Shown in pieces: positions 14,716-59,842 of a DNA stretch of 64,000 bases. Each line of letters starts with the position of its first letter. Positions within the stretch are counted from its first letter, which is position 1. The position numbers and the translations under genes were made by a program. The notes beneath the pieces were generated by a model. It saw only the letters and a program-made list of their open reading frames with translations, was not told the origin of the DNA and did no database searches. Source of the DNA: a virus (Duplodnaviria; Heunggongvirae; Uroviricota; Caudoviricetes); the IMG/VR virus record IMGVR_UViG_2595698945_000001; one strand, 5' to 3'.

Positions 14716-14754
14716 CTGCGATCAATAAGTAAGTACACGACTACGGTTAGAAGC

Positions 14755-15231
14755 ATGTCCACAAGAACAGATTTGTCGAAAATCCCGTCTATCTCTGGAA
14801 ACAACGGTTATTCGCTGCGCTGTCCGGAAGTGAAGATCAACGGCCATGAGGCCCATTGCAGCTATACAGTCTGCCAGCACACCATCCTCGCCTACAAAGA
14901 GAAGCGTCTCCCGGCTACATCGTTCCAGTCCTGCGCTGCGGCCATTGCTGCTGGAAAATGCCAGGCGCTGAAGATGATGGTCGAAGAGATCCGCAAAGGC
15001 GAACAGCTCTACTTCATCGATATGGCTGCGCTTATCAAAGAAGTGGAAGAGCAAAACGACCACGCCAGAACGCTTACCCGTAAGCGCAACACCATGACGA
15101 TTAACAGTCTGGTTAAACGCACGATGAAAACAGAACCAGCCAAACCCGAAACCACGCCCACCGATTCACTGGCGCCCGTCACTGATGTGTACGCGGCACT
15201 CATTGAAGAAGCAACCAAAGAAAACACATGA
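14755..15231 (+). CDS. Hypothetical Cys-containing protein
   Basis: 158-aa ORF downstream of a Motif A half-site. Confidence 0.35.
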   Translation: MSTRTDLSKIPSISGNNGYSLRCPEVKINGHEAHCSYTVCQHTILAYKEKRLPATSFQSCAAAIAAGKCQALKMMVEEIRKGEQLYFIDMAALIKEVEEQNDHARTLTRKRNTMTINSLVKRTMKTEPAKPETTPTDSLAPVTDVYAALIEEATKENT

Positions 15232-15265
15232 AAACTCCCGAGCGACCGATGGAGGTTAAACACTA

Positions 15266-16588
15266 ATGGAAAAACTGATCGCCCTAAAGCACAAGCTGGA
15301 TGACATAAAAACGATGGGAACCAACGCCAAGAAAGAGGCACTGGCCAACCTTGATGAATTTGAGCAGAGCATGGTCTCGCTAATGCTCAACCCATTCATT
15401 CGATTCGGTGTGAAGAAGTACAAAGTGGCCGAGCCACTCGATACTTCCGTACCCAGCGACCAGAAGGTAGTCGAGCTGCTGGAGAAGCTGGCGGCGCGCG
15501 AACTGACCGGGAACGCGGCTATTACTGCTGTCGAATCACTCGTTGCCTCAATGTGCGCTGACGGGCAGGATGTGTTTCGTCGCTTCCTGCTGAAAGATCC
15601 GAAAGCCGGCGTCGGTATCAGCCTGTGCAACAAGGTGTTCGAAAACCCAATTCCGAAGTTTGAGGTACAGCTGGCGTCTCCGTACAAGGAGAAAGGCGAC
15701 AAATACCCATTTAAACCAAATCCAAAGGCCAAGTGGCCAATGATCGGCAGCCTCAAACTCGATGGTCTCCGGGTTATCTGCGAAGTCATCGTTGACGAGG
15801 AAGAGGTGAACTTCCTGACGCGTACCGGCAATCCGATTACGTCACTCGATCACCTTAAACCAGCCATGCTTGAGCGAGGCAGACTCTCCGGTTTCAAGCA
15901 TATTTTTTTCGATGGTGAGGGTACTGCAGGTACGTTCAACCAGTCCGTGTCGGCACTTCGCAAGAAGAACGTGAAAGCCATTGGTGCCGTTTACCACATC
16001 TTCGATTTCTTCTTACCGGAGTGGCGTGCTCAGGCAAAAAGCAAAGAGTACCTGAAGACCGGCATGAAGCTGAAAGAGCGCCTGGCTATGCTGGTGGCGT
16101 TGTTCCGCAACACTTGCGGGGAAGATTACGCGCAAGATGTCCACCTGCATCCGTTCTACATCATCCATAGCCATGAAGACTTTATCGAACGCTTCATGAA
16201 GCGCCTGGACGAGAACGAAGAGGGGGAGATGGGCAAAGATCCGGATTCTGTTTACGAGTTCAAACGCACCCGCAGCTGGTGGAAGCTGAAAGACGAGGAT
16301 TCCGAAGACGGTGAAATCATCGACTTCGAGCCAGGCGACCCGGACTCTGGCTTTGCGCATACGCTGGGCAAGATAGTGATTCGTCTGGAGAACGGCGTCA
16401 TCGTTCGTGCCAGCGGTATCAAGCATAAGTACCTGGACGAGATCTGGAACAATCAGGAGAAGTATCGTGGACGCATCGTTGAGGTTCACTGCCATGAGAA
16501 AACGCCAGACGGTAGCTTACGCCACCCACGTCTGAAGTGGCCGAAATGTCTGCGAGACACCGAAGACCGTATTGGAGATAAAGACTGA
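15266..16588 (+). CDS. ATP-dependent DNA ligase
   Basis: Adenylation motif I around SLKLDGLR (KxDG). Size and motif order as in T4/T7-type ligases. Confidence 0.8.
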   Translation: MEKLIALKHKLDDIKTMGTNAKKEALANLDEFEQSMVSLMLNPFIRFGVKKYKVAEPLDTSVPSDQKVVELLEKLAARELTGNAAITAVESLVASMCADGQDVFRRFLLKDPKAGVGISLCNKVFENPIPKFEVQLASPYKEKGDKYPFKPNPKAKWPMIGSLKLDGLRVICEVIVDEEEVNFLTRTGNPITSLDHLKPAMLERGRLSGFKHIFFDGEGTAGTFNQSVSALRKKNVKAIGAVYHIFDFFLPEWRAQAKSKEYLKTGMKLKERLAMLVALFRNTCGEDYAQDVHLHPFYIIHSHEDFIERFMKRLDENEEGEMGKDPDSVYEFKRTRSWWKLKDEDSEDGEIIDFEPGDPDSGFAHTLGKIVIRLENGVIVRASGIKHKYLDEIWNNQEKYRGRIVEVHCHEKTPDGSLRHPRLKWPKCLRDTEDRIGDKD

Positions 16589-16764
16589 TGCTCGGCTGGA
16601 TGATTGTATTTTTGGTCGTCGGCATTGTTATTGGCAGTCTGATTACGTCCAGCTGCATCAACGATTACGTAAAAGCCGGTGTCATGCAGAGACGTGGCCG
16701 CATTTACCGCATTGTAGATATCACGTACACACTGAAGGAGATTAAGGATGATCATGTTAAGTAA
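16588..16764 (+). CDS. Small membrane protein (58 aa)
   Basis: ATGA overlap with the ligase stop. Single TM helix MIVFLVVGIVIGSLI. Confidence 0.3.
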   Translation: MLGWMIVFLVVGIVIGSLITSSCINDYVKAGVMQRRGRIYRIVDITYTLKEIKDDHVK

Positions 16765-16960
16765 ACGGGAGAAAGAAACTCTGCGTGAAATCAGCCAGTG
16801 GAAGGAGTTCTATGCCAACTGGAAGCCAAAGACCCGCGCCAAACTGGAACGTATGAATCTTGTCGCTAACGTTTCGCCAAAGGGATGTGTGGAGAACTAT
16901 CAACTCACTGAAAAAGGACACTCACTGTTGCAGCAATTGACTGAGGCGGGGGCGTTCTGA
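16748..16960 (+). CDS. Hypothetical small protein
   Basis: RBS AAGGAG 7 nt upstream. Confidence 0.4.
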   Translation: MIMLSKREKETLREISQWKEFYANWKPKTRAKLERMNLVANVSPKGCVENYQLTEKGHSLLQQLTEAGAF

Positions 16961-17111
16961 TGATTCCATACATCCTATTATCTTTTGCTGGGGGCGTGGC
17001 CCTCGGCTTCAGTATCTGTCGCGATCTGGTCAGGCAGGAACTGAAAACCAAAACGCTTCGCATCGGTAAGCGGCTGTATCGGGTTGTTCACGAGACGGGA
17101 GTGCGGAAATG
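16961..17111 (+). CDS. Small membrane protein (49 aa)
   Basis: Stop/start overlap chain. One TM. Confidence 0.3.
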
Positions 17112-17414
17112 AGCAATTTGACCTCTTTCGACTGGTGGCTGGCAACCTACCTTGTAGCGGCCGGCTTCGGATATGCCTTTTACATTGGTCAGTTAATCGT
17201 AAAGCTACTGCTGATCAGATTTGCCAGCCATAAACGCATAGATGACGGTCTGTGGCGCCTGGGTTCTCTGCTGGAGACTCACTACGGCGAACTGAAGGAG
17301 AACGAAACTATCACTATTCAAGCGAAGCGTTTTACGGCCATCATCACGAGAACGCCGGAACAGAAGGTGAGCTTGATCAAAAAGATAGCAACTGAACGAG
17401 TTATAGAAAAATAA
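17109..17414 (+). CDS. Small membrane protein
   Basis: ATGA overlap. N-terminal TM. Confidence 0.4.
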   Translation: MSNLTSFDWWLATYLVAAGFGYAFYIGQLIVKLLLIRFASHKRIDDGLWRLGSLLETHYGELKENETITIQAKRFTAIITRTPEQKVSLIKKIATERVIEK

Positions 17415-18162
17415 GTATTTACTTACTTATCCATTATATATAAGATTCATTTGTTTTCGTTGAGACGCGACTGTTTGAACGTTAAATATAACTGCAAACG
17501 AAGATACGTACCTGGCAGTAGCCTAAGAAGCCAAACACCAGCGAGGTCAGTTTCCAGCCTCGTCACCGAAATGGGACACACTGAGCAAGTGTGATTGCAG
17601 AACGCAGGATAGGGCATGTTGCACCACCCATGCCCTATTCGATGAAGTAACAGGATGGGCGGTTGGTTTCCTCATTCCATTCCATCATCCCGGTTTCAGC
17701 CAGCTGACCGTCCATCCTGTTACGTCATTTCCATTACTTATGTCGTTTAATCTTGGGTTAAAAGCGGCGACGTAACCCGGCTGGCTTGGTTAGCCAGCGC
17801 ACAACGTTGAGGTCACTGTTTTTCTTTTAATCATACAGGTGATTCCACAGAGCTGTAGTGACTGATCAATATGTTGGGTCGAACATAAATCGGTTCAGTG
17901 GCCTCAACGTTGTGAAAGCAGGATTCTTTAACCCTCTGGTGAAATCATTGTTGCCTATGTAGCCCCTGGTTTCACAACATGGATGATTCCGTACATCCAA
18001 TAAGATCGAAGAGTCTGGCGGCCATCAACCGCCGAGAAGGATTCCAGATCTTCGCTCTATGTGAGCGAGCCACAAGCCTCGTCTGGCACTAACGTAAAGT
18101 GCAAGTTGCGGGAAAGTTCTTGGTTGCCTGGTTGTCCATGAACAAGTACCGCCGCGAAAAAT

Positions 18163-18237
18163 GATGGTGTAGCTCAGTGGTAGAGCGGTTGACTGTTAAT
18201 CAACTGGTCGGTGGTTCGAGTCCACCCACCATCGCCA
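18163..18237 (+). tRNA. tRNA-Asn (anticodon GTT), CCA encoded
   Basis: Cloverleaf built by hand: acceptor GATGGTG/CACCATC, D-arm gctc-agtggta-gagc, anticodon arm gttga-ctGTTaa-tcaac, T-arm ggtgg-ttcgagt-ccacc, discriminator G, then CCA. Confidence 0.8.
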
Positions 18238-18310
18238 ACATAGCGCTGAACGGTTTGGAGTTCGCCACCACCGTCCGCACAGTTTAATACCACCGCTCGC
18301 CCCCTCTAGT

Positions 18311-18345
18311 GCCTGTACGAACAGATTAGATACCTGTTCGTACAG
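18311..18345. promoter_or_regulatory. 12-bp perfect inverted repeat ctgtacgaacag-N9-ctgttcgtacag upstream of cobT-like gene
   Basis: Seen in sequence. Candidate operator. Confidence 0.4.
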
Positions 18346-18398
18346 TGATAAATTACGCACATCAGAAAACAAATTGTTTAAATAACAAGGAAATTCTC

Positions 18399-20744
18399 AT
18401 GTCCAAAGCCATGACCAGATCTGTGCTGAAAGAGGTACAGGACTTCCGCGACTGCGTAAAACGTGTTGTAGCGATGCTTTCAGGCAAGCAGATACCTGTT
18501 GCAGAGCGAGGCAATGAAGCATATGTCCGCTACAACCGGCGCGGCGAACCAGTGCTGGTAAACATCCCATCTATACCGGACGACGCATCACCAACCCTCA
18601 TGAACGCAGTACGTGGTTTTCTCGACCATGAGGTAGCCCATATCCTCTTTACTGATCCGACAGTCGCAATGAAGATGCGCGAGAGAGGAAAGGCTCCGTC
18701 TACCGGGCTTTGGAACGCGCTGGAAGACGTTTTTATTGAACGCAGAATGGGACAGGTATTCAACGGAACCCGTCGCAATTTGCTGGCCACACAGAACCTG
18801 GTGATCGACAAATACTTCAGAGGCAAAGTGTCAGAAGCGGTTTCAATCTGCCACGGCGACCAGCGCGAACTATTCCTGAAATTCTTCCTTTGCCCGGTCG
18901 TCCGCGCCTGGGATGGCCAAAGCCCTTTCATCGACTTTATGGAAGAACACTGGCACCTCATCGAGAAGCCGGTTGCCTTGCTCAAGGAGCACTGCATAGA
19001 CGTGGCCGTTCGCAATATGTCCAACACTGAGGACTGCGTGAAGGTCGCTGCTGCTATCGCGCAAATCATGCAGGATATGAAAGACAAGCCAGAGGGTAAA
19101 TTACCAGAGCTTAAATCATCTGCAAAAAAGCCGTCGAAGAGCAAAGACGAGTCTGAGGAAACACCAGAGTCAGGCGACGATCCGTCTCATGGTGAGTCTG
19201 CGCCAAAGCGTACCAAAGGCGAAGACGACGACAAGGAAGAGCAAGAAGATGATGTCTCAGAAGAGGAGGAGTCTGGGGATTCTGATTTGCCTGAATCAGT
19301 AGATAAGGACTTACCTATACACGATAAAGAGATTAGTGATATAGAAAGTAAATATACAGAAACAGGCGAAGATGAGTCGGTAGAGGCACCAGAATCCGAT
19401 GATGCCGGCATGGACTCAGGTGATTCTGATGACACTGGCGCTCCAACGCCTGGCGATGGCATTCGCGAAGATGCCGATGACTCCGATGGTTATGGCTCTG
19501 GCGCCGCTGGTGATGGGGATGGCGCTGACGGGGAAGACCCCGATGCTGGTCGTGGGGAGTCCGAAGAAGGCGAAAAAGAGGATGACACCGCCGATAACGT
19601 AGAAGGCGAAGGCAAAGAAAATGAGGATGGCGCTGAAGTGCCAGAAGACAGTGAGTCAGGCTTTGTTCCTGCGCCGGATGAAATGACTTTGGAGGACGCA
19701 CTCAAGGCGCTCGACGAGATGGAAGACGGAACCGGTGAAATGACCGAAGACGCACTGTCGGCCACCATCAGTAAGGAGCTTATGAGCACCTCGCTTTCTG
19801 AGTATCGCCCATACGATCGTTCATACGACTTTATCGGGCTAATTGATGAGGCTGAAGAGCATGTTAAGCGCACCAGAAAGACATTTGGCGCAATCCCAAT
19901 GCACTCACCGGTCGATCGCTACCGCATGGTTCCGGAAGGCAGAAAACTCTTTGAACTGAAAATCGAAAAACATCTGTCAGCAGGCGTTTCTTCGACTCTG
20001 GCCAAAGACCTGGAGCGAGCTATCGCCAGCCGCAACCGAGTTCAGTTTATCCCTGGTCAGAGACGTGGGCGGATACATGGCGCGAACCTGTATCGTCTGG
20101 CAATGAACGACGACCGTGTGTTCCGCAAGAAAGAAGACCACAGAGCGGTGAACGCGTGCGTCCAGCAGGTGATCGACTTATCCGGCTCAATGGGTGGCAG
20201 GAAGATTCAACTGGCACTCGCCAGCGCCTACACCATTGCGGATGCCCTAGATCGTATCAATGTGCCTAACATCATCACCGGCTTTACCACATTTGGTAGC
20301 CCTGATTATGAAATCATGTCGAAGCGCGGATTTACACGTTTCGAGGCGCTCATGCTGCCCATTATCAAAAACTGGAATGAGAAAGCTAACTCTCCAGAGA
20401 TCCGCGCCCGCATGGGCTGCGTGTGTGAGACGTTCCCCCTGCTCAATAACGTCGATGGTGAGAGCGTCGCGCAGCTGGCGACTCTGTTTGCAGGGCGAAT
20501 GGAGGACAAGAAGATCATGCTGGTTATGAGCGACGGGGCGCCATGTGCTGCAGGCGATGGGTTCCATCAGCATTTACGAACCGTCACCAAAGAAATTGAG
20601 ACGTTGAGTGACATCGATCTGATGGCTATCGGGATTCTGACCGACGAGCCACGACGTTTCTACAAAAATTACGCGCTGGTAAACAGCGTAGAAGAGTTAG
20701 GGCCGTCAGTTGTCACTGAGCTATCTCGTATCATTCTTGGGTAA
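18399..20744 (+). CDS. CobT-like protein: N-terminal CobT-type domain, ~200-aa poly-acidic linker, C-terminal vWA (MIDAS) domain
   Basis: ATG at 18399 after RBS AAGGAA. D/E-rich low-complexity region. vWA MIDAS motif VIDLSGSMGG. Confidence 0.65.
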   Translation: MSKAMTRSVLKEVQDFRDCVKRVVAMLSGKQIPVAERGNEAYVRYNRRGEPVLVNIPSIPDDASPTLMNAVRGFLDHEVAHILFTDPTVAMKMRERGKAPSTGLWNALEDVFIERRMGQVFNGTRRNLLATQNLVIDKYFRGKVSEAVSICHGDQRELFLKFFLCPVVRAWDGQSPFIDFMEEHWHLIEKPVALLKEHCIDVAVRNMSNTEDCVKVAAAIAQIMQDMKDKPEGKLPELKSSAKKPSKSKDESEETPESGDDPSHGESAPKRTKGEDDDKEEQEDDVSEEEESGDSDLPESVDKDLPIHDKEISDIESKYTETGEDESVEAPESDDAGMDSGDSDDTGAPTPGDGIREDADDSDGYGSGAAGDGDGADGEDPDAGRGESEEGEKEDDTADNVEGEGKENEDGAEVPEDSESGFVPAPDEMTLEDALKALDEMEDGTGEMTEDALSATISKELMSTSLSEYRPYDRSYDFIGLIDEAEEHVKRTRKTFGAIPMHSPVDRYRMVPEGRKLFELKIEKHLSAGVSSTLAKDLERAIASRNRVQFIPGQRRGRIHGANLYRLAMNDDRVFRKKEDHRAVNACVQQVIDLSGSMGGRKIQLALASAYTIADALDRINVPNIITGFTTFGSPDYEIMSKRGFTRFEALMLPIIKNWNEKANSPEIRARMGCVCETFPLLNNVDGESVAQLATLFAGRMEDKKIMLVMSDGAPCAAGDGFHQHLRTVTKEIETLSDIDLMAIGILTDEPRRFYKNYALVNSVEELGPSVVTELSRIILG

Positions 20745-20841
20745 TGGCTTTACCCGTAAAAATAAGTAATCACTTACTATACAGCCTAATATATTTATAT
20801 AAGATATACCCCACGAACGACAAACAGTAAGGAAAAAACAC

Positions 20842-22077
20842 ATGACCGCTACTGCACTACAGCAAGAAGAACATTTGCCGGAAGCCATCGTCTGCAAGTG
20901 GTGTGGCAAATCCTTTCATTACCTGAAATCCCATATCTCTATGGGCCGTTGCGAGAATATTCCTGAGTCTGCGAAGGGTCTGGACGTGGACGAAGTGGTG
21001 AAGATGTACACCTCTGCGTTTCCAGATGAACCAACGATCTCTCGCACGGCACTGGCCAAACTCAATGAGAAGCGTGCCGAAAAGCATTCAGGCGAAGGAA
21101 AAGTAGCGGAGATTAGCGCACATCCGGGCTACGCAGGAACGGTCGAATACAAGACCGAACTGGTGGCCGCGCACGAGCTGCTTGGCGTAACGATCAAAGA
21201 GCTGGGAACGCCACGCGGAAAGCCACTACAGGTGACAGTCAACGTCAACACGCCATATCCGGAGTTCGTACCGGAAGCGAAGAAGAACTATGTGTATGGC
21301 GACTTCGACCTGATTAAAGACATCTTCATGATGCTGGAAATCGGAATACCAGGCTATCTCTGGGGTCATGCAGGAACCGGTAAATCTTCTCTTCCTACGC
21401 AGCTATGCGCCCTGCTGAATCGACCACTGATCCGCGCCCAGCATACGGCGTCTATGGAAGAAGCACACGTTACAGGCCAGATCCTCGCTCGCGATGGCTC
21501 CACTTACTTCGAGCCTGGTTTGCTTGCGCTGGCGATGAAAAATGGCTGGGTGTACCTCGCTGATGAATATGACTTCGCGTTCCCACAGATTCTGGGTGTG
21601 TACCAGCCAGTTCTTGAAGGAGAGCCGCTGATCATCAAAGAGGCAACTCCGGACTGGCGCCGTATCACTCCGCATAAACGCTTTGCCTTCATTGGCACTG
21701 GCAACACTAACGGCTCTGGCGACGAAACGGGTCTCTATCAAGGTACGAACATCCAGAACGCGGCGAACTTCTCGCGCTTCGGCATTGTTTCGAACGTGAA
21801 GTACATGAGCACTAAGGCTGAAGTCAACATGCTGGTTGAGGCTGGCGTCATCCGCGAATACGCCGAGAAGATGGTGAAGTTCGCGAACCTTGTCCGTGAA
21901 GGTTATGAACAGCATCTGATCAGCCAGCCAATCGGCCCTCGCGAGCTGCTGCTGTCCGCAAAAATCGGAATGATGCGCGGTGATTTCTCTGCCGGCATCG
22001 AAAAGTCGTTTATCAATAAACTTCCATCCACGTCTGCACAGGCGGCGCGTGAAGTGGTTCAGAAGATCTTCGGTTAA
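20842..22077 (+). CDS. CobS-like / MoxR-family AAA+ ATPase
   Basis: Walker A GHAGTGKSS. AAA+ core. N-terminal CxxC...H...C element. Adjacent to its vWA partner. Confidence 0.65.
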   Translation: MTATALQQEEHLPEAIVCKWCGKSFHYLKSHISMGRCENIPESAKGLDVDEVVKMYTSAFPDEPTISRTALAKLNEKRAEKHSGEGKVAEISAHPGYAGTVEYKTELVAAHELLGVTIKELGTPRGKPLQVTVNVNTPYPEFVPEAKKNYVYGDFDLIKDIFMMLEIGIPGYLWGHAGTGKSSLPTQLCALLNRPLIRAQHTASMEEAHVTGQILARDGSTYFEPGLLALAMKNGWVYLADEYDFAFPQILGVYQPVLEGEPLIIKEATPDWRRITPHKRFAFIGTGNTNGSGDETGLYQGTNIQNAANFSRFGIVSNVKYMSTKAEVNMLVEAGVIREYAEKMVKFANLVREGYEQHLISQPIGPRELLLSAKIGMMRGDFSAGIEKSFINKLPSTSAQAAREVVQKIFG

Positions 22078-26220: not shown

Positions 26221-26247
26221 AAAACCCGCCGATTGGCGGGTTTTTTA
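26221..26247. terminator. Bidirectional rho-independent terminator between convergent genes
   Basis: aaaaacccgccgattggcgggtttttt. Confidence 0.7.
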
Positions 26248-26823
26248 TGCGCAAATTTCTTCGCGATTATGCGGGCGAAGCAGTGAGTGGGTAATTGACT
26301 CCACCTCCTGAATGTCGCCAAACGATCTGATACGCAGGGCAAGATTCCACTTATTCAATGTGTGCGCGTTACGCACCAGTTCTTCCCGTGCTTTTGCGTC
26401 TTTGCTGTCGAGACGACCGCAGTCGTTCAACCATTTAGCGACTTCCGACCAATCCCAGAGTGGAGACTGACCGCTGATGCGCTGTACAGGGCAAGGGAAA
26501 TCGCCTTTGCCACGTAAGCCGTCTTTAAGCAGAGTGATAGCCTGGCGGGTTAAGCCGGAGAGTTGAGCGATATCACTCAAACCTACCAGTGCTGAATCTA
26601 CCGATTCCACCACTGCGCCAATACCTGCTGTTTCAATATTATCGATTGCCGATTTGATTGCCTGATCTAAAGATTCAGCTTCTCTGTCAAATTCTACATA
26701 CACTGAGCTGCCGTAGTAGCAGATGAGCGCGTCATCGCAACCGTTGGTGTACAAAGCGTCTGCGAGACCTTCGGTCTCCATCTGAACGCCTGATAATGTC
26801 AGTGTGAAGTTATAGAGTTCCAT
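26245..26823 (-). CDS. HicB-like antitoxin (N-terminal domain plus HTH)
   Basis: Lies downstream of the HicA-like gene on the same strand. HTH LSDIAQLSGLTRQAITLLK. Confidence 0.45.
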   Translation of the reverse strand: MELYNFTLTLSGVQMETEGLADALYTNGCDDALICYYGSSVYVEFDREAESLDQAIKSAIDNIETAGIGAVVESVDSALVGLSDIAQLSGLTRQAITLLKDGLRGKGDFPCPVQRISGQSPLWDWSEVAKWLNDCGRLDSKDAKAREELVRNAHTLNKWNLALRIRSFGDIQEVESITHSLLRPHNREEICA

Positions 26824-26875
26824 TTGGATCTCCTCGTCAAAAAGGCGGTTGCCCGCCTTGGCTAAAACTCCCGAA

Positions 26876-27112
26876 TCAGTCCTTTGTTGACTTCGGGTTA
26901 CAGCGGTCGACCATTCTGCGGATCTGCTTTGCGTGCGTCTCCGGGTCTTTTGGTGTGCTGTTTACGCTCATGGCGTGAGTACGTCCATGTTCGGCAATTC
27001 CGCATTTGATGGTACAGAAGGGGTGCCCTGTCGCTTCTTCAACGATCCAGCCTTTTTCTTCTGCGTAACGGAGTGCGTCACGTACTTCTTTATTAGGGTG
27101 CTTCTTACTCAT
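26876..27112 (-). CDS. HicA-like mRNA-interferase toxin
   Basis: 78 aa. Alignable by eye to E. coli HicA (..GW...G..H..........HG.......P.D.....I). Toxin-first gene order. Confidence 0.5.
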   Translation of the reverse strand: MSKKHPNKEVRDALRYAEEKGWIVEEATGHPFCTIKCGIAEHGRTHAMSVNSTPKDPETHAKQIRRMVDRCNPKSTKD

Positions 27113-31294: not shown

Positions 31295-31298
31295 TCAC

Positions 31299-31332: not shown

Positions 31333-31358
31333 ATATATAAGTACTTACTTATCATTTC
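31333..31358. promoter_or_regulatory. Motif A palindrome copy
   Basis: atatataagtacttacttatcatttc. Confidence 0.5.
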
Positions 31359-33348: not shown

Positions 33349-33416
33349 ACACAATGATTGTGCGCCGCATGGCGCACATTAATATAAATAAGCACTTACC
33401 AATAAGGAGAAAACAC

Positions 33417-33708: not shown

Positions 33709-33735
33709 TATATAAGTTAGTATCTACCTATCATG
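33709..33735. promoter_or_regulatory. Motif A palindrome copy abutting the start codon
   Basis: atataagttagtatctacctatcATG. Confidence 0.45.
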
Positions 33736-38714: not shown

Positions 38715-38742
38715 AAAATAGGTATTCACTTACTTATATATT
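38715..38742. promoter_or_regulatory. Motif A palindrome copy
   Basis: aaaataggtattcacttacttatatatt. Confidence 0.45.
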
Positions 38743-43410: not shown

Positions 43411-43436
43411 TGATAGGTAAGTACTTATCTATTAAC
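43411..43436. promoter_or_regulatory. Motif A palindrome copy
   Basis: tgataggtaagtacttatctattaac. Confidence 0.5.
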
Positions 43437-51304: not shown

Positions 51305-51313
51305 GGAGTACCA

Positions 51314-53286: not shown

Positions 53287-53313
53287 AAATAGGTAAGTGT
53301 TTACCTATCATGG
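53287..53313. promoter_or_regulatory. Motif A palindrome copy
   Basis: aaataggtaagtgtttacctatcatgg. Confidence 0.5.
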
Positions 53314-53320
53314 CAAGGTA

Positions 53321-53914
53321 ATGATCGCAGCCGAAAAAATCAAAAAGCGAGAGCGTGATGCCTCTCTTCGCGACCTTTGGCGCACACCGCAGTGGTTGTT
53401 TGTCGCCATCCAACGTTACATAGGCGTAAAGTTCGATGTGGACGTCGCCTGCAACAAAGATAATGCCCTCCTGCCGAACTTTATCGGTGTTGAGCGTGAT
53501 GCGCTCAAGTGCAGCTGGGGAGAACCTGGCACTGTGGCGTTCCTTAACCCGCCCTACTCCAAAATCACCCCCTGGATAGACGCAGCCATTCGCGAGCAGG
53601 CGCGTGGAGTGACGACGGTCATGCTGATACCACAATCACTCGATACGCAGTGGTACGAGCGTGCGGCTGAATGCGCCAACGAAACCGTCATCTTGTCTGG
53701 CGGCCGCGTGGCGTTCGTTGAGCCGGATGTTGAACTTGGGCTGGTGGAGGTGAACATCAACCCTGGTGGCAGCATGTTGCTTATCTTCCGTGGCTACTGT
53801 CAGGAAGCTGGGCACACCATCAGCAAGATACCGCTGGCGGTAATGAAAAAGCTGGGTGGTTATGATCCTGCCAATGTTGTCAGGAAGAAGAGACCACGTA
53901 AAAAGGCAGCGTAA
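53321..53914 (+). CDS. DNA N6-adenine methyltransferase (phage Dam-type)
   Basis: ATG at 53321 after RBS AAGG. WRTPQWLF and FLNPPYS (NPPY catalytic motif). Confidence 0.75.
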   Translation: MIAAEKIKKRERDASLRDLWRTPQWLFVAIQRYIGVKFDVDVACNKDNALLPNFIGVERDALKCSWGEPGTVAFLNPPYSKITPWIDAAIREQARGVTTVMLIPQSLDTQWYERAAECANETVILSGGRVAFVEPDVELGLVEVNINPGGSMLLIFRGYCQEAGHTISKIPLAVMKKLGGYDPANVVRKKRPRKKAA

Positions 53915-53936: not shown

Positions 53937-54006
53937 GAGAACCTGCTTCCGTATATATAAATAACTAAGTACTAATTATTAATATATACAGACGCAGGCT
54001 TTTTAA
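53937..54006 (+). repeat. Hairpin element R2 (second copy of the 9093-9159 element)
   Basis: gagaacctgcttccgtatatataaataactaagtactaattattaatatatacagacgcaggcttttt. Confidence 0.6.
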
Positions 54007-54116: not shown

Positions 54117-54347
54117 ATGGTATACCCGACGAACGTCGTAGCGCTCGTTGAGAGCGATTTTCTGGCCAAAGTGCGCGACATGATGAAAGATCGCGATAAG
54201 GCTTTCAGTCTCTACGAATGGTCGCTCAAATGTCTTCATTCAGGCGAGCACAAAGAGCTGGTGGAGCAGCTGTTAGGGGAACTCATCAATGAGGTGTTTG
54301 CCCTGAACGTCCAGCTTCACGGTCGAGAAAATAATCAATCGAAATAA
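54117..54347 (+). CDS. Hypothetical protein
   Basis: RBS AAGGAA. 76 aa. Confidence 0.4.
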   Translation: MVYPTNVVALVESDFLAKVRDMMKDRDKAFSLYEWSLKCLHSGEHKELVEQLLGELINEVFALNVQLHGRENNQSK

Positions 54348-54372
54348 TCGGTAAGTACTTACCATTTAAAAC
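54345..54372. promoter_or_regulatory. Motif A palindrome copy
   Basis: aataatcggtaagtacttaccatttaaa. Confidence 0.5.
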
Positions 54373-54940
54373 ACAGATCGCCAGTGATAAAATCTACCCG
54401 CTTTCCGGATTGATTCCGGCAGCTCGATCTGATGGGTGGGGGATAGCGTCACTGGCGTCAGGTTTAAAAAAGCTCACTACCAGCGTAGAACCGGCACCGT
54501 TTAGGGGTTGGGGAAGGGGGAACCAAAGTGGGTAGAGAGAAGGGTCACTTTATGATTGTCGAGTCTGGAGTGTTTCGAGAGGTTGAATCCAGTACTCCCC
54601 TTCATAAAGTGTGGGAAGATCTCGGTTCTGGGGTGCTGTCATCCATAACTTCCCAAGCCTAAGCTGGCAGTAGACTTAGGTCATACCTTTTCAGGTTATG
54701 AAACGACCAGGTTGGTGAGGGAATTTTGTACTCACCTCCCTGGGAGAGTATTACCTGAAAAGACAACCTCTCACTTCGTTCGAGGTGAACTTCACTCACT
54801 TCGTTCGTTCAGTTCAGGTTTTAATAAAACCTGTTCTGGGAAGTAAGTTTTTCTTTTATAAAATTTTTAATATTTACACGCACGCGTGCGCACACGCGCG
54901 AGGGAAAAAAATCGTCGCGGCGCGCGATTCTGGAGCCAAA

Positions 54941-55549
54941 ATGACGACCAAGACCCCAGTCCGGCAACATACTGGCTGCCGCACGAAGTCCAAAGCCAGA
55001 TACCAAACCCACCAGCAATCCCGTACCAACTTCAAAACCCCCGTAGTCGAGTTCAATCCCCAGCTCAAAACCGTAAAAGTATTCAGTGATGGCTCTTGCC
55101 TCAAAAATCCGGGCGGGCCGGGCGGTTACGGCATCGTTCTCCAGTATCGAGGCGAAGAGCGCGAGCTTTCTGAGGGCTTCCACAGCACGACCAACAATCG
55201 GATGGAGATGATGGGCGCCCTGATTGCGCTGGAGCGTCTGAAGTACCCCTGCAACGTGATCCTGCATTCCGACAGCCAGTATCTAAAAAACGGCATGACG
55301 CTCTGGATGAAAGGCTGGAAGCGTAACGGATGGATCACGTCTGAGAAGAAGCCAGTCAAAAACGTCGATCTCTGGAAACGTCTTGATGCGGCCGCCAGCC
55401 GTCACAATGTCCGCTGGAAGTGGGTTAAAGGTCATGCCGGTCATCGCGAGAACGAAATGTGTGACCGTCTGGCGAAGATCGCCGCCTACTCCGCAGCTGA
55501 TATGCCTCACAAGCGTGACATTGGATTTTTGTCACAAAATGATAAGTAA
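54941..55549 (+). CDS. rnhA: Ribonuclease HI with ~45-aa basic N-terminal extension
   Basis: ATG after [44 protein letters not shown] align with E. coli RNase HI. Confidence 0.8.
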
Positions 55550-55568
55550 GTATTTACCTATCATTTTA
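55538..55568. promoter_or_regulatory. Motif A palindrome copy
   Basis: aaatgataagtaagtatttacctatcatttt. Confidence 0.5.
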
Positions 55569-55947
55569 AATCAGTTATCTTACCGTTCGTCAGGATGACG
55601 AAGTACCGGTTAGGTACTGTTCCAGGATGGAACGCCAAAAGGCGGCTGGCTTGGCCAGCCGCAACTCTTTCTGACACTGAATGGAATCCAAATGGCATGT
55701 CAAACGCCTTTCACTTCTTTCAATAAACGTCCCCGTTCAATTCGCCTGGTTCTGGCCGAGCTGTTTAGCGGCCGTGTTTCTGCACGCCTTGCGGAACTGG
55801 AAGAACGAGTGTTTGAGCTGGAGAAGCGCATTGATGCGCAAGCTACCGCCATAGCAAATCTGGGTGCGACAGTAGGCATGGGGAAGGTGCGTGATTCCGT
55901 CGCCTCTCGTGTGTTGCGTGAATCCCAGGCACACAAGGACAGTTCTC

Positions 55948-56199
55948 ATGGAAAATTTTCAACGAAATCGACTGAAGCCAATGGCCTACGGAGTAATTTT
56001 AGCAACCCTGGCAGCGGTAGCCGTGCCAGCCGGTCAGAGTCTGTTGATACCGGACACAACTACTTCCACCACAACCTTGCAGACGACACCCCTGCCAGAA
56101 CGACCTCCTGTCTCTCTGGATGGGATGCTGCTGGACACGATTCCAGCTCGACCTGCAACTCCGGATCTTCCTTCTGCTGTGACTGAGGCTGTTGCATGA
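55948..56199 (+). CDS. Possible secreted Thr/Pro-rich protein (coding uncertain)
   Basis: Signal-peptide-like AYGVILATLAAVAVPAGQ. ATGA overlap with the next ORF. An alternative overlapping frame exists (55692-56186). Confidence 0.25.
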   Translation: MENFQRNRLKPMAYGVILATLAAVAVPAGQSLLIPDTTTSTTTLQTTPLPERPPVSLDGMLLDTIPARPATPDLPSAVTEAVA

Positions 56200-56384
56200 A
56201 ATGGAGCTTCCAGAAAGTCACCGCGATGATTGTTGGTCTCGCCATTTTTCTGCTTGGTGGCTGGATCATGAATCTGGTGAAACTCGTGAACGGTGGCGAT
56301 CTTCAGTTTGATGCCGGAATGACACTTGCGCGTGTCGTGGGCATTTTCGTTGTTCCGGTGGGCAGCATTCTCGGGTTCTTTTGA
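56196..56384 (+). CDS. Small membrane protein (2 TM)
   Basis: 62 aa. Hydrophobic helices. Confidence 0.3.
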   Translation: MKWSFQKVTAMIVGLAIFLLGGWIMNLVKLVNGGDLQFDAGMTLARVVGIFVVPVGSILGFF

Positions 56385-56407
56385 TGCCGAATCCATTTTC
56401 GGCACTG

Positions 56408-56425
56408 TTAAAACAAATTGTTTAG
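56408..56425. promoter_or_regulatory. Motif B palindrome copy upstream of rha
   Basis: ttaaaacaaattgtttag. Confidence 0.5.
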
Positions 56426-56492
56426 CCAATTAACCAATGAGAGTTAACAACAAGGGCCACTGACGGCCCTTTTTACACTGAATGGAGAATGT

Positions 56493-57308
56493 ATGTTTGA
56501 GGCAACCGCACACGCTCCCACCACTACAGGCTTACACGCCAAACCATCGATGACCAGTCAGGAGATCGCCGAAATGGTCGGCAGTCGCCATGACAGCGTA
56601 AAACGCACCATTGAAAGACTCGCTAAATCCGGCGTTATTACTTTTCCACCAATGGTGGAAAAGCCCACAGCCGGGCGTCCGGCTACGTTTTACTTGTTCG
56701 AAGCCGAACAGGGTAAACGCGACAGCATCGTTGTCGTGGCACAGCTTTCTCCTGAATTTACCGCACGCCTTGTTGATCGGTGGAGAGAGCTTGAGTCCAT
56801 GTTTGCCGACCGCGGAACGCCTGCTATTCCACGTACCTATAAAGAGGCTCTGGTTCATTTGTTACACCAGGTCGAGGAAAACGAGCGTCTGGAGAAAGAG
56901 AACGAAGCGTTAGGCGTTGCACTATCTAACGCAAAACCAAAAGCCATTCTCATGGACACCATTTGCGGCACTGCTGATGAGCTTTATGGGCTGAATGAAG
57001 CTGGTCGCATTCTCGGAACGTCCGGGGCTGTTCTGGGTGCGCTGATGGACTCGCTGGGTGATGTGTACGTTAAGCGCAAATACACCACTGTTAACCGCCA
57101 GTTCCTCAAGATCTTCATTGACCGCGGATATGGCAAAAACGTTGTCATCGGAAACGGACGCAACCAGGCCAAGTTCACCTTTAAAGGACTTTGCTTTGCT
57201 GCCGTGAAGCTAATTGCTGCCGGGAAAATTACCGCCAGCGCCATTGAGTATGAGCCGTGTCGTGAGCATGTCGAACGTGAAATGAAGGAATCCAAATGTC
57301 TTCATTAA
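56493..57308 (+). CDS. Rha-family phage regulatory protein (Rha N-terminal domain plus C-terminal antirepressor-type domain)
   Basis: MTSQEIAEMVGSRHDSVKRTIERL matches the Rha signature (..S.eIAe..gkrHdnVlRdI..l). RBS GGAG. Confidence 0.6.
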   Translation: MFEATAHAPTTTGLHAKPSMTSQEIAEMVGSRHDSVKRTIERLAKSGVITFPPMVEKPTAGRPATFYLFEAEQGKRDSIVVVAQLSPEFTARLVDRWRELESMFADRGTPAIPRTYKEALVHLLHQVEENERLEKENEALGVALSNAKPKAILMDTICGTADELYGLNEAGRILGTSGAVLGALMDSLGDVYVKRKYTTVNRQFLKIFIDRGYGKNVVIGNGRNQAKFTFKGLCFAAVKLIAAGKITASAIEYEPCREHVEREMKESKCLH

Positions 57309-57416
57309 CCGTCAGTGTGGGCGTCCGCCTTTACGTAGCGTTTGCCCACCTTTTCAGTCACGCCACAATAACGCCATCGAGAAAACTACTTGTTTAAAAA
57401 CATAAGGAAAAAACAC

Positions 57417-57989
57417 ATGTGCGAAAAATGCAAAAAAACTAATGCCAAAGTTGAAAGCGTGATTAAAAAAGTTGGTGCGGCCGAACTGGTTGAGATCATG
57501 GGTCTTGTGGTTGGTCACGAAGACGACGCCTCCCCTATCGACCGCCTTTTCAGCGTTCTCAAGTTCTCAAGCATGATTGATGATCCGATTGAAATTGTGA
57601 TGCTGGCGCGTCATTTCGGCGAAGCGTATCTGGAAGAGAAAGAACGCGCCGACAAACTTCAGGCAACGCTGGAAATGGTAAGCAAGCCGAAGTGCTCACC
57701 GGATTCAGTCAAGGCAGATGAAACCAACGCCAGCAAAGATCGTGAAATCGCCGGGCTGAAGTCTTCTCTGGCGATGTTGCTGGCCGCCTTCAAACTGATG
57801 TCTTCCCAGGCTGGGTTCAAAATGCCTGAGCTGAACAGCGACGATCCGATGGCCGTTCGTCAGCTGCTGGGGGCAATGGCCGACCAGCTTGACGACACCA
57901 AGAGCCGTCTTGAAGACATGATGCGCGAGCTGACCCATCGCCACGACCTGAACAAACAGCCGCACAAAACGCAGCACGTACACCACTAA
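57417..57989 (+). CDS. Hypothetical protein with N-terminal CxxC
   Basis: ATG after RBS AAGGAAA. Confidence 0.4.
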   Translation: MCEKCKKTNAKVESVIKKVGAAELVEIMGLVVGHEDDASPIDRLFSVLKFSSMIDDPIEIVMLARHFGEAYLEEKERADKLQATLEMVSKPKCSPDSVKADETNASKDREIAGLKSSLAMLLAAFKLMSSQAGFKMPELNSDDPMAVRQLLGAMADQLDDTKSRLEDMMRELTHRHDLNKQPHKTQHVHH

Positions 57990-58006
57990 TTTCTCACCTG
58001 CCGACA

Positions 58007-58030
58007 GGGGGCGAAAGCCCCCTTTTTTAC
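58007..58030 (+). terminator. Rho-independent terminator
   Basis: gggggcgaaagcccccttttttac. Confidence 0.7.
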
Positions 58031-58103
58031 GACTTAAATCAGCTGCAACGCCTGTGAATGCTGCTTTTACGCCTTTTCAACTTTGGGAAAATAACACCAA
58101 CAA

Positions 58104-58120
58104 GAAAACAATTTGTTTAA
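58104..58120. promoter_or_regulatory. Motif B palindrome copy
   Basis: caccaacaagaaaacaatttgtttaa. The same extended context occurs at 32471-32499. Confidence 0.5.
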
Positions 58121-58130
58121 TGGTGCAATC

Positions 58131-59816
58131 ATGAATACAGCCCTTTCCATCATTGACGTTATCACCCCAAACACTGATATCGACTATCGGCAGGAAATGA
58201 ACGTCATCCACGAAATTGTGGCCGAGTGCGAGAAAGAGATCGCCTTCATGCATCAGGTTCACGACTTCGTCTATGGCGACGAACGCCACAACATGATTAA
58301 CCGCCTGCTGCGACTCAACCACCGGCCAGATGACGAGCGCACACGCTTTAACAGAGCCTGGCTGGACAAAGTCGACCTGGAATGGGTGAAACAGAATATC
58401 TGGGCCGAGTACTGGAAGAAGGTCACGGATATGACAAACGTTCTGCTGATCATGCCAGCTTCCCGCCGCGACGAGTGGCGCGAGCAGTTCATCGAGGGCA
58501 AGCAGGAAACCATCAGGACTGACAGAACCGGCTACCAGATGAAAGTTAAGGAGTTCGTTGGCGTGCCGGAGTTCAAAGCAGAAACGGTCATCCCCACGAT
58601 GCTCAATCTGCTGAATGACAGGCACAAATATCTCTCTGAGCGCGTGTATGGCTTGTTTAAGGCGCTGAGTCCTGCCCACAAGACCAACAAGACGAACGGC
58701 TTTAGCGAGCGTCTGATCATCGCCAACTGCATTTCCGCGTTCTGGCGGGATAGCGTGAGCGTGAACTACCGGAAAGAGGACTACATCGACGACCTGCGCG
58801 TCATGCTTCATTTCTTCGCGCACAAAGAGTTCATCACCATCAACCGCACAACTGAGATGCTATCAGCTGCGTACCGGGCAAACGACTGCCAGACTGGTGA
58901 CTGGATGAATGTCGACGGAAACCTGATGCGCGTGAAGATGTTCAAGAACGGCAACGTTCACTTTGAAATACATCCTGACGTGGCCTGGAAGCTGAATGAG
59001 GTGCTGGCTTACAGTATGCCTGCAGCAATCCCAGCGCCATGCCGTACTGCACCCAAAACACGGGCACCAAAAGAATTCGGGTTAATCCAGAAGACGATCT
59101 CCGAGCCGGTTCGTACCGCGCTGCGCGACGGGCGATTCAGCAAAGACAAAGGCGTCTGGTACTTCTCTGATTCCAACCTCCAGAAGTCGCAGGTGGAAGA
59201 GCTTGAGCGCACACTGAACTTCATTGGCGGCGTGCAGGAGAAAAAGCACTGGCAGTTCCCGTATGAGATCGGCCATACGCTCAATACGATTGTGGCCACC
59301 GGTTTAATACCGGATACGAAATCACACCAGTTCTACCCTACCCCACGTTTGATAGCGGAGTACGTTGCCAGAGCCATAGAGCTGAAGCCAGGTGAGAAGC
59401 TGTTGGAGCCTGAAGCCGGGCGCGGAGATCTGCTGGCCTGCATCGACGCCAATCCGGAAGACGTTACCTGCATAGAAGTCGCACCTCTCTTCGCTGATAT
59501 CCTGCTTGGCAAGGGGTACACAAATACGGTCTGCTGCGACTTCATGAAGTGGTCTGAGGACAACGCAGGTTATCAGTTCGACAAAATCGTCATGAACCCG
59601 CCCTACTCTCTTGGCCGTCACAGAGAGCATACGCTGGCCGCACTGGAGCATCTTAAAGTCGGCGGGCGACTGGTGGCTGTACTGCCGGGTGATGCGCCAG
59701 TTCTGAACTGGATGACGCTGGATAATTTCGTTTATGCCAAAGGGAAGTCGTTTACTGACGAGTTTGAAGATACCGGAATCACTGTCAGCGTATACGTTTT
59801 CAAACGTGTAAAATGA
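58131..59816 (+). CDS. Orphan DNA methyltransferase (amino-MTase; C-terminal catalytic domain, ~400-aa N-terminal domain of unknown function)
   Basis: FYPTPR (motif X), LEPEAGRGDL (motif I), IVMNPPYS (motif IV), all in the last ~150 aa. Confidence 0.6.
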   Translation: MNTALSIIDVITPNTDIDYRQEMNVIHEIVAECEKEIAFMHQVHDFVYGDERHNMINRLLRLNHRPDDERTRFNRAWLDKVDLEWVKQNIWAEYWKKVTDMTNVLLIMPASRRDEWREQFIEGKQETIRTDRTGYQMKVKEFVGVPEFKAETVIPTMLNLLNDRHKYLSERVYGLFKALSPAHKTNKTNGFSERLIIANCISAFWRDSVSVNYRKEDYIDDLRVMLHFFAHKEFITINRTTEMLSAAYRANDCQTGDWMNVDGNLMRVKMFKNGNVHFEIHPDVAWKLNEVLAYSMPAAIPAPCRTAPKTRAPKEFGLIQKTISEPVRTALRDGRFSKDKGVWYFSDSNLQKSQVEELERTLNFIGGVQEKKHWQFPYEIGHTLNTIVATGLIPDTKSHQFYPTPRLIAEYVARAIELKPGEKLLEPEAGRGDLLACIDANPEDVTCIEVAPLFADILLGKGYTNTVCCDFMKWSEDNAGYQFDKIVMNPPYSLGRHREHTLAALEHLKVGGRLVAVLPGDAPVLNWMTLDNFVYAKGKSFTDEFEDTGITVSVYVFKRVK

Positions 59817-59842
59817 TAGGTAAATACTTACCTAATTTATGT
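59812..59842. promoter_or_regulatory. Motif A palindrome copy
   Basis: aaatgataggtaaatacttacctaatttatg. Confidence 0.5.

Follow-up and report, generated by a model that had tools for sequence, protein, structure and literature searches.

The genome of Salmonella phage SSU5, a phage-plasmid, carries about 27 copies of a 20-bp palindrome centred on GTAC; the repeat is real and conserved and is predicted from its sequence to be the binding site of a regulator encoded by the element itself. The stretch of DNA in which it was noticed is 64,000 nucleotides long (IMG/VR record IMGVR_UViG_2595698945_000001, Caudoviricetes; hereafter the window) and is 100% identical to the SSU5 record (NC_018843/JQ965645, 103,299 bp), window position x corresponding to record position x + 24,362. 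The best explanation of these copies, to which we give an even chance, is that they are operators at which a repressor encoded by the element would silence the middle and late lytic transcription units.

In order to judge the motif across the replicon the whole annotated SSU5 genome was scanned with the consensus ATARGTAAGT-ACTTACYTAT (the hyphen marks the centre of the dyad; written also ATAAGTAAGT-ACTTACTTAT), using a 26-nt position weight matrix (PWM) at a threshold of at least 20 bits and the 20-mer at up to five mismatches. The 22-mer proposed in an earlier reading of the window made without database searches (the sequence-only reading) was counted at up to three mismatches. The 22-mer gave four matches against none in 100 dinucleotide shuffles, the 20-mer gave 28 in the whole genome against 0.26 in shuffles and the PWM gave 22 matches on the plus strand and 18 on the minus strand against none in shuffles. 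Copies score on both strands with a 2-bp offset and the motif is therefore a true dyad. After curation the total stands at about 27 sites in the 103-kb genome, with 19 in the window, six in the upstream cluster of virion and structural genes (record 2031-21937) and two weak copies outside the window at record 93165 and 99798. About 24 of the 27 are intergenic despite a coding share of 88%. The sequence-only reading had named two findings that would count against the motif, equal frequency in coding or shuffled sequence and lack of conservation in related phage-plasmids, and neither was made, the dyad being rare in coding sequence, absent from shuffles and kept by the relatives.

The lytic-type genes of SSU5 all lie on the plus strand, and a block of small genes, minus-strand genes and maintenance functions occupies record 85-103 kb. 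A dyad is found in 24 of the 78 intergenic gaps of at least 25 bp, divided between 22 of 56 in record 1-85 kb and two of 21 in 85-103 kb. The distance from the dyad to the next start codon ranges from 2 to 970 bp, so that the placement 0-40 bp upstream of a start described in the sequence-only reading holds for about seven of its 15 copies and fails for the rest. The preceding stop codon provides a more regular context, lying 0-18 bp away at 13 of the 27 sites. Nor do copies typically follow a terminator immediately, as had been thought, since a canonical terminator precedes the dyad at only about four sites and a hairpin follows it at two to five. The dyads of the window are listed below with their PWM scores where these are informative, along with their counterparts in Escherichia phage Cyrano, a relative with about 78% DNA identity to SSU5 and with dyads at orthologous positions.

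3112..3131 (record 27474): dyad GTAGGTAAGCGCTTACCTAC, 20/20 self-complementary, between the Cor-like gene and the holin gene; Cyrano orthologue at 26657; missed by the sequence-only reading
9238..9257: weak dyad GTAAGTAAGTGACTACCTAT, 12 nt before the SSU5_038 start; Cyrano orthologue at 31296
13816..13835: dyad in the divergent region between SSU5_041 (minus strand) and SSU5_042 (plus strand); 32.5 bits on the minus strand and 23.5 on the plus strand; Cyrano 34730
14725..14744: degenerate dyad, left half only, 14 bits; 28 nt after a terminator and 11 nt before SSU5_043
17411..17430: dyad overlapping the SSU5_048 stop codon, upstream of tRNA-Asn; 32.8 bits; 20/20 identical in Cyrano
19299..19318: doubtful dyad within the SSU5_049 coding sequence; 19 bits; no Cyrano counterpart
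20762..20781: dyad between SSU5_049 and SSU5_050; 28.5 bits
27813..27832: dyad upstream of the gene for a gp32-like single-stranded DNA-binding protein; its right edge is a TATCAT -10 box
31333..31352: dyad filling the 17-bp spacer of the near-consensus sigma70 promoter TTGAAA-17-TATCAT (13.1 bits, same in Cyrano); terminator 26 nt upstream
33384..33403: dyad abutting the SSU5_065 Shine-Dalgarno sequence
33712..33731: dyad abutting the annotated SSU5_066 ATG and overlapping the promoter TTTACA-17-TAGTAT; 20/20 identical in Cyrano
38718..38737: dyad in the divergent region between SSU5_072 (minus strand) and the SbcD-like gene (plus strand)
43413..43432: dyad between the RuvC-like gene and nrdA, overlapping a TTGATA-17-TAACAT promoter and followed by a terminator hairpin; 31.9 and 32.1 bits
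47995..48014: dyad AATTGTAAGTATTCACTTAT at the SSU5_080 stop codon; 26.5 bits
48149..48168: dyad 18 nt before the thymidylate synthase start; 34.5 bits
53289..53308: dyad upstream of the Dam-like methyltransferase gene, overlapping the annotated GTG, the likely true start being ATG 53321; 34.1 bits
54347..54366: dyad at the SSU5_089 stop codon, followed by a 419-bp unannotated gap; 29.7 bits
55542..55561: best-scoring dyad (ATGATAAGTAAGTATTTACCTATCAT), overlapping the RNase H gene stop codon; 36.4 and 33.8 bits
59816..59835: dyad at the SSU5_095 methyltransferase stop codon, upstream of SSU5_096; a conserved TGTAAGAAT box lies 7 nt downstream

All 15 positions given in the sequence-only reading hold the motif, with coordinates off by 0-4 nt, and 14 of them are good copies (25-36 bits with the 26-nt PWM); the copy placed at 14723 is present in its left half only and is weak at 14 bits. 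Its count of at least 15 was correct and too low for the window, which has four more (3112, 9238, 13816 and the doubtful 19299 inside a coding sequence). The perfectly palindromic consensus which it derived is not realised in any single copy, the best 22-mer copy having two mismatches. The register of the 47995 site was off by 4 bp in part of the analyses, which concerns one of 27 data points.

Three annotations next to dyads deserve comment. The annotated GTG of the SSU5_088 methyltransferase (window 53297-53323) lies inside the dyad and comparison with Cyrano favours the ATG at 53321 (MIAAEKIK...), and for SSU5_125 (record 99817-99836) the probable true start is likewise a downstream ATG (MGVKITIL...). 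The 419-bp gap at window 54367-54784, which follows the dyad at 54347 and has no annotated gene, could hold a small protein or a non-coding RNA. The equivalent gap of Cyrano contains the small open reading frame CYRAN_81 downstream of a degenerate dyad, reported at 12-fold above background in lysogens.

The sites are under constraint in relatives at increasing distances. Cyrano keeps, among others, the portal-gene copy and the one in the 64 bp that separate the divergent UvsW-like helicase and ParB-like operons, and identity between SSU5 and Cyrano reaches 87% in the dyad (90% in the arms and 80% in the inner six bases) as against 67-71% in the 30-bp flanks. Among 80 IMG/VR relatives with portal identities of 69-99% the same sites are kept, the portal-gene copy included; in the more distant of these only the outer arms ATARGTA-N6-TACYTAT persist, and perfect 18-mers are still present in a contig whose portal is about 55% identical. 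Elements with the SSU5 gene order in two further genera have a dyad of altered sequence, reading ATCAGTAARY-RYTTACTGAT in Aeromonas caviae pKAM329_1 (about 30 copies vs 1.9 in shuffles) and ATCAGTCAYT-ACTGACTGAT in a 107-kb plasmid of Acinetobacter baumannii (13-16 copies in 50 kb vs 2.1 in shuffles), and in both it is found at the terL/portal junction, near the capsid gene and in the helicase/ParB divergent region. These are co-diverged versions of the dyad (ATCAGTAA…TTACTGAT and ATCAGTCA…TGACTGAT), at about 30 copies per element. Across the lineages the skeleton AT..GT.A...T.AC..AT is invariant and positions +-8, +-7 and +-4 are switched; we conclude that the regulon is old and that its sites have co-diverged with their reader, and these sequences are evidence for an ancient circuit that would have co-evolved with its sites across three bacterial families.

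This distribution also bears on the notion that a host transcription factor binds the dyad and so ties the lytic genes into a host regulon, for which a reason could be found in the arms, which we take to resemble NarL-type heptamers (TACYYMT), albeit in a different arrangement. A 32-nt consensus search of 5,426 complete E. coli genomes returned 1,552 places in 244 genomes, every one of them on SSU5-type plasmids of about 100-115 kb, with no near-consensus copy on any chromosome, and the dyad changes together with the element between host genera. At the level of near-consensus sites a host factor is effectively refuted, and overall it is the least probable of the readings we consider. Unrelated viral contigs that hold the exact 18-mer have no proteins in common that could serve as candidate readers and their matches look like chance. 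Five IMG/VR contigs of about 41% GC (L009, L028, L037, L034 and L025) have two or three near-consensus dyads within a few kb and share no protein with SSU5 in the stretches compared, which may reflect chance or the independent use of a similar site.

The dyad has the signature expected of a DNA site. Its two halves carry similar information, the best-kept positions being +-9, +-8, +-6, +-5 and +-4, and when mirrored positions were compared over 110-215 unique sites pairing was equal to the expectation for independence at eight of ten, with an excess at +-7 and a slight one at +-3. Non-pairs at +-7 are strand-symmetric (A.C 34, G.T 31) and a compensated A-T pair at +-6 occurs in one of 215 sites. 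Thirteen of the 27 SSU5 copies have a folding free energy above -3 kcal/mol, two of them at 0.0, with sense and antisense energies equal, and no Rfam family was found to overlap any dyad site. As the arms are conserved independently of each other, about half of the copies lack a hairpin and no strand-specific RNA signature is seen, we read the dyad as a predicted DNA site for a two-fold symmetric, dimeric protein that would recognise duplex DNA, and the sequence-only reading, which had proposed a dimeric DNA-binding protein, is supported in this respect. It is very unlikely that the palindrome works instead as an RNA hairpin in polycistronic transcripts, whether as a processing site, a 3' stabiliser, a weak terminator or a target of the FljA-like protein SSU5_121. 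Such a role would suit the many copies that lie 0-18 nt after a stop codon, the consensus would fold at -8.7 kcal/mol, purine/pyrimidine (R/Y) association at +-7 is 0.70 where 0.48 is expected and the element does encode a FljA-family post-transcriptional regulator. Against it stand the weak or absent folding of 13 copies, the lack of compensation at +-6, the strand symmetry at +-7 and the empty Rfam search. Moreover the inner 6 bp are non-complementary in relatives whose portals are 70-80% identical, the arms are conserved in sequence and not in pairing, and no FljA-like homologue was detected in the Aeromonas element, which retains about 30 dyads.

Many dyads coincide with promoters. The best sigma70 match overlapping a dyad averages 5.7 bits, compared with 2.5 in random intergenic windows (p = 9e-5), and scores are higher on the gene strand than on the mirror strand, which serves as a composition control (Cyrano p = 0.04, SSU5 p = 0.08). 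Good promoters are present at around 10-12 sites, and Cyrano keeps the register of each. From one site to another the register varies, and measured from the dyad centre the -10 box starts at -4, +2, +8, +11, +16, +21 or +25. In two promoters of the form TTGAAA-N17-TATCAT/TATGAT, at window 31333 and record 3544, the 17-bp spacer consists exactly of the dyad, and at 13.1 bits they score above any promoter associated with the second palindrome described below. The promoter at record 3544 lies inside the portal gene, with the scaffold and capsid genes about 100 bp further on, and is kept as TTGATA-N17-TATGAT even in relatives whose portal is 70% identical. About seven sites have no credible promoter and at several of these the dyad occupies the narrow space from a stop codon to the Shine-Dalgarno sequence of the following gene, as at the terL/portal junction in both SSU5 and Acinetobacter. 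We found no conserved element at a fixed distance on either side of the dyad that could be a -10 or -35 partner, alignment columns beyond +13 holding less than 0.3 bits, and at most sites no -35 box is present (on average 1.9 of 6 positions match). At its right edge the dyad does read TAT/CAT and TAnnnT occurs at +8..+13 on the gene strand of 14 of the 27 sites, but it is equally frequent on the mirror strand (17 of 27) and is therefore part of the extended palindrome. A polarity is nonetheless apparent. In four of four genomes the half-site that is upstream with respect to transcription is better kept, with 1.1-1.3 mismatches compared with 1.6-2.1 in the other half, and this holds for Aeromonas too, despite the opposite orientation of its genes. 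The count over the three independent lineages is 32 vs 15 (p = 0.02). This argues that the site is coupled to transcription and not orientation-free.

A de novo count of palindromes returned a second repeat, AAACAANTTGTTT (motif B), with 11 exact and 20 near-exact copies in SSU5 against 0.1 in shuffles. Copies are located as follows.

Window 6087 (record 30449): motif B
Window 18367 (record 42729): motif B
Window 56411 (record 80773): motif B
Window 58106 (record 82468): motif B
Window 63263 (record 87625): motif B
Window 63579 (record 87941): motif B
Record 81: motif B, further copy
Record 88370: motif B, further copy
Record 90740: motif B, further copy
Record 92759: motif B, further copy
Record 94525: motif B, further copy

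Motif B follows canonical sigma70 promoters (e.g. TTGGAC-16-GATAAT) at a fixed distance of 13 +- 2 nt from the -10 box, and in many cases exactly 12 nt separate its end from an ATG. The copies are clustered in the 80-95 kb block; Cyrano has nine exact copies and Aeromonas none. The 78 intergenic gaps divide into 23 with the dyad only, 17 with motif B only, one with both and 37 with neither, and the two motifs are thus mutually exclusive (Fisher p = 0.008) and form two alternative classes of intergenic control element in the genome. This exclusivity tempers the claim in the sequence-only reading that one dimeric protein controls most transcription units, which the counts do not support, 24 of 78 gaps carrying the dyad and motif B heading another 18. 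It is also the main argument for reading the two motifs as two temporal classes of promoter. A side observation concerns the partition genes: SSU5_033/034 (window 6135-7159) encode a ParA-like ATPase and then a putative 96-aa ParG-like ribbon-helix-helix (RHH) centromere binder, a type Ib arrangement, and upstream of them lie motif B and a truncated half-dyad (AAGTACCTATCA).

As to the protein that reads the dyad, the best candidate on circumstantial evidence is SSU5_130 (YP_006906762.1, record 102971-103237, outside the window), an 88-aa MarR/PadR-like winged-helix protein as judged from its predicted structure and the last gene of a conserved ParB-like operon. Its orthologues are present in every lineage that has the dyad, and widening the family search in IMG/VR returned the same group only. 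The presumed recognition helix TKQ..Q(F/H)..R is conserved from Salmonella to Acinetobacter, which matches the invariant skeleton of the site. Searched against Pfam the sequence has no significant match (best E = 0.14), and its AlphaFold2 model (mean predicted local distance difference test score, pLDDT, 87.9) is a winged helix with the topology H-H-H-beta-beta-H for which Foldseek returns MarR, MepR, MexR and PadR structures in the PDB, operator complexes among them, with probability 1.0 and TM scores of 0.7-0.76. The operon ParB_N - ParB_N - ABC-type ATPase - 129 - winged helix has stayed together in Salmonella, Aeromonas and Acinetobacter. In these three lineages, and likewise in Cyrano and the IMG/VR relatives, a dyad lies in the helicase/ParB-like divergent region that holds its promoter, as expected of an autoregulated repressor. 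The genes found universally beside this dyad are the helicase, the RHH-like SSU5_123, the ParB_N proteins SSU5_125 and 126, the ATPases and SSU5_130.

The proteins that annotation or analogy would suggest do not fit. The Rha/Ant protein SSU5_093, put forward as a candidate repressor in the sequence-only reading, is absent from Cyrano, where the whole regulon is intact, and so is SSU5_116, annotated as repressor-like. The HicB/HicA-like SSU5_054 and 055 have a promoter without a dyad; these genes (window 26245-27112, minus strand), annotated as an excisionase and transcriptional regulator and a hypothetical protein, are the counterparts of a HicB/HicA toxin-antitoxin pair which Cyrano expresses in lysogens. 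A master repressor of the P1 C1 type had been another suggestion and can be set aside, the best tblastn match of C1 to SSU5 and Cyrano having E = 3.4 and the site being two-fold symmetric; for P1 Lpa the best match has E = 0.57. The annotated transcriptional repressor, SSU5_121, is likewise excluded, since it belongs to the FljA family (PF03614, E = 3e-81), which acts on mRNA and whose members have been described as post-transcriptional regulators (PMC2652032). It diverges mosaically, with 53-69% identity where the portal has 80-97%.

L002:46897-47343, minus strand: SSU5_121, outside the window, with two Sm/Hfq-like repeats by eye

The documented mRNA target of FljA is the fliC leader, and in Salmonella and Citrobacter this leader contains ATCAAGTTGTAAT about 20 nt before the ATG and has the exact 8-mer CAAGTTGT in common with motif B; the E. 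coli fliC leader is without the 8-mer. These sequences suggest that SSU5_121 may be a translational regulator of motif-B leaders and/or of host flagellin.

According to the operator reading an element-encoded dimeric DNA-binding protein would recognise the outer arms (TA-R-GTA ... TAC-Y-TA) at the roughly 27 sites, which lie before and between the replication, nucleotide-metabolism, lysis and virion gene blocks. At about half of them the dyad overlaps a sigma70-type promoter in gene direction and in the two strongest cases it takes up the whole distance from the -35 to the -10 box, so that bound protein would exclude RNA polymerase, while the promoter-less sites between a stop codon and a Shine-Dalgarno sequence may have an auxiliary or roadblock role. 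The net result would be that the middle and late lytic transcription units are kept silent in the plasmid-prophage state, with the separate motif-B promoter class operating alongside. The sequence-only reading had left the choice between a master repressor and a promoter-recognition factor open; we infer both the sign of the regulation and the identity of the reader from the arrangement of sites and genes, and the evidence leans towards a repressor. Several observations pull the other way. A convincing sigma70 promoter is present at only 10-12 sites, the excess in promoter score on the gene strand is modest and the -10-like TAnnnT at the edge of the dyad is as frequent on the mirror strand, and the alternation of dyad and motif B fits two temporal promoter classes, and hence an activator, as well. 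The case for SSU5_130 has weaknesses of its own. SSU5_123 (YP_006906755.1) and the ParB-like SSU5_125/126 are equally universal, which leaves the link between SSU5_130 and the dyad circumstantial, and no consistent code relating recognition-helix residues to bases could be found across the lineages. The SSU5_130 gene is on the lytic strand and immediately precedes terS, where other phages typically have a late activator. The Cyrano orthologue of SSU5_123 is expressed 12-fold above background in lysogens (PMC9928086) and that of SSU5_130 is not among the genes reported as expressed. SSU5_123 is thus a possible reader, although its monomer AlphaFold2 model is poor (pLDDT 65), so that the RHH fold is not confirmed, it has no PDB or Pfam matches, and the beta-strands of the RHH-like proteins are unrelated between lineages, unlike the recognition helix of SSU5_130.

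Two further readings accept the dyad as a protein-binding DNA site. The dyad might be the recognition element of a phage-specific class of middle or late promoters without a -35 box. Host RNA polymerase would be recruited to them by an activator bound at about -20 to -35, which might be the winged-helix protein itself, in the manner of P1 Lpa or T4 MotA, and motif B would mark the early sigma70 class. This we consider distinctly less probable than repression, though it is the strongest of the competing explanations. Besides the exclusivity of the two motifs, the position of the candidate reader gene and the polarity of the site, it draws support from the general lack of -35 boxes, from the presence of a dyad at all virion and lysis blocks when the small early-type genes at 80-95 kb have motif B, and from the resemblance of the inner AAGT-ACTT to the P1 -22 box AAGT[G/T]ACTT. 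Against it, no fixed distance to a -10 box is seen, and the register of the promoters varies over about 30 bp with almost no information beyond +13 and with a -10-like edge that is symmetric. Moreover at several conserved sites (window 33384 and 53289; record 2031 and its Acinetobacter equivalent 75053) the Shine-Dalgarno sequence or ATG follows 2-14 nt after the dyad, so that a transcript starting there would be without a ribosome-binding site, and at others it is a terminator hairpin that follows. The two strongest sites are complete consensus sigma70 promoters at which an activator is not needed, no Lpa homologue was found in SSU5 or Cyrano, and relatives in the MarR and PadR families are mostly repressors.

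The conserved operon gives rise to the other reading, in which a ParB-type nucleoprotein system would be loaded or anchored at the dyads, with SSU5_130 as a site-specific KorA/AspA-like adaptor for the putatively CTPase-type SSU5_125/126 and the ATPases. If this were true, ParB-clamp formation or spreading from about 27 dyads would be a phage version of long-range plasmid silencing as opposed to a CI-type repressor, or would serve the organisation or segregation of the replicon. The ParB_N domains of SSU5_125 and 126 are real (E = 9e-14 and 9e-9, with GxxRxxA-like motifs by eye), the operon is conserved as a unit and always has the dyad in its promoter region, the centromere binder AspA, known from pNOB8, is among the structural matches of SSU5_130 (4rs8, TM 0.67), and promoter-less dyads and variable promoter distances are as described for the OB sites of KorB (PMC11790492). 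We nevertheless hold this to be improbable. Neither SSU5_125 nor 126 was found to have a helix-turn-helix (HTH) or another domain for specific DNA binding. AspA comes 49th among the structural matches, level at best with generic winged-helix proteins, and a ParA and small ParG-like pair is already encoded by SSU5_033 and 034. Nor would a centromere be expected to show polarity towards transcription or to be nearly missing from the maintenance region, as the dyad is.

Dispersed operators are known from other phages and plasmids and the SSU5 system has something in common with several of them. In L5/Bxb1 (Cluster A mycobacteriophages) operators and stoperators are proposed to block both initiation and elongation and so to silence the prophage (PMC9283540). 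The likeness lies in more than 20 copies within the lytic genes of a temperate siphovirus, placed at promoters and in short intergenic spaces by stop and start codons, which in SSU5 corresponds to about 27 sites with some 24 intergenic, 13 within 0-18 bp of a stop codon and 10-12 at promoters. Copies that lack a promoter and a connection with the transcription direction are likewise common to both. The L5/Bxb1 sites are however 13 bp long, asymmetric, strictly oriented and read by a two-domain monomer, in contrast to a 20-bp dyad of mild polarity, SSU5 has no homologous repressor, and the hosts and phage lineages are unrelated. P1, likewise a phage-plasmid, lives in Enterobacteriaceae and has numerous control sites scattered over its genome (annotated in NC_005856); we extracted all 11 of its annotated late promoters for comparison. 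The 9-bp late -22 box AAGT[G/T]ACTT shares its arms with the 8-bp centre of the SSU5 dyad, AAGT-ACTT, which is without the central base; at about 1 bit per position this centre is less conserved than the outer arms and does not match the 9-bp box. The P1 box lies at a fixed 4 bp from the -10 hexamer and on the transcribed strand only, unlike the dyad with its variable -10, and the C1 operators are 17-bp asymmetric sites where that of SSU5 is two-fold symmetric and longer.

The RK2 KorA/KorB system combines dispersed palindromic operators, a small dimeric repressor at core promoters, a ParB-family partner in the same operon and autoregulation (PMC11790492). SSU5 resembles it in having dispersed palindromes, one of them at the promoter of the presumed regulator, and a winged-helix gene together with two ParB_N genes in the operon that this dyad precedes. 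KorB has its own HTH and its own operator (OB), whereas in the SSU5 ParB-like proteins no DNA-binding domain was detected and a single dyad class is present at the operon, no sequence homology to KorA/KorB was found, and the RK2 regulon consists of transfer and maintenance genes where that of SSU5 is predicted to consist of phage lytic genes. Operators of MarR/PadR proteins are 16-20 bp palindromes which overlap promoters and also lie upstream of the reader's own operon, in agreement with the fold of SSU5_130. The usual N- and C-terminal dimerisation helices of MarR are missing from the minimal 88-residue protein, and MarR/PadR regulators control one or a few sites where SSU5_130 would control about 27. 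The dyad system departs from the L5/Bxb1, P1 and RK2 systems in their defining features and therefore appears to belong to none of those families; by analogy it would be a new addition to the wider class of phage and plasmid regulons with many operators.

Other repeats were seen in the course of the scan. Three long hairpins with 17-bp arms (CCTGCTTCCGTATATAT / ATATATACGGAAGCAGG) have AT-rich loops that hold a degenerate dyad. The sequence-only reading had placed degenerate copies in two of these loops, and they are present there, weak at 16-19 bits and part of this separate long-hairpin element. Two of the three loops contain an exact P1 late-promoter -22 box (AAGTTACTT and AAGTGACTT).

Window 9093-9159: long hairpin
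Window 53937-54006: long hairpin
Record 103262-103299 plus 1-23: third long hairpin, across the record ends, just upstream of terS

A cluster of iteron-like direct repeats (GCCATTACnnnA..., CACCCACCT..., CAGGGAAAAGGC) at record 90763-91605 (L002:40763-41605, outside the window) is possibly a replication or partition locus.

Phage-plasmid reviews describe no regulatory circuit for the SSU5-type group and the literature searched held nothing relevant on the dyad sequence, so that both motif and circuit appear to be undescribed so far. SSU5-type phage-plasmids are common, a 20-kb stretch of SSU5 matching 843 plasmid records, and relatives occur in Klebsiella, Enterobacter, Salmonella (SSU5_pHCM2 group), Yersinia (pMT1 group), Aeromonas and Acinetobacter. 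The dyad together with motif B suggests a two-tier control architecture for these elements. The dyad yields a PWM which partitions SSU5-type genomes into control units, and points to a concrete candidate regulator. The elements are clinically relevant, and the architecture could serve to force or block the induction of those that carry resistance genes.

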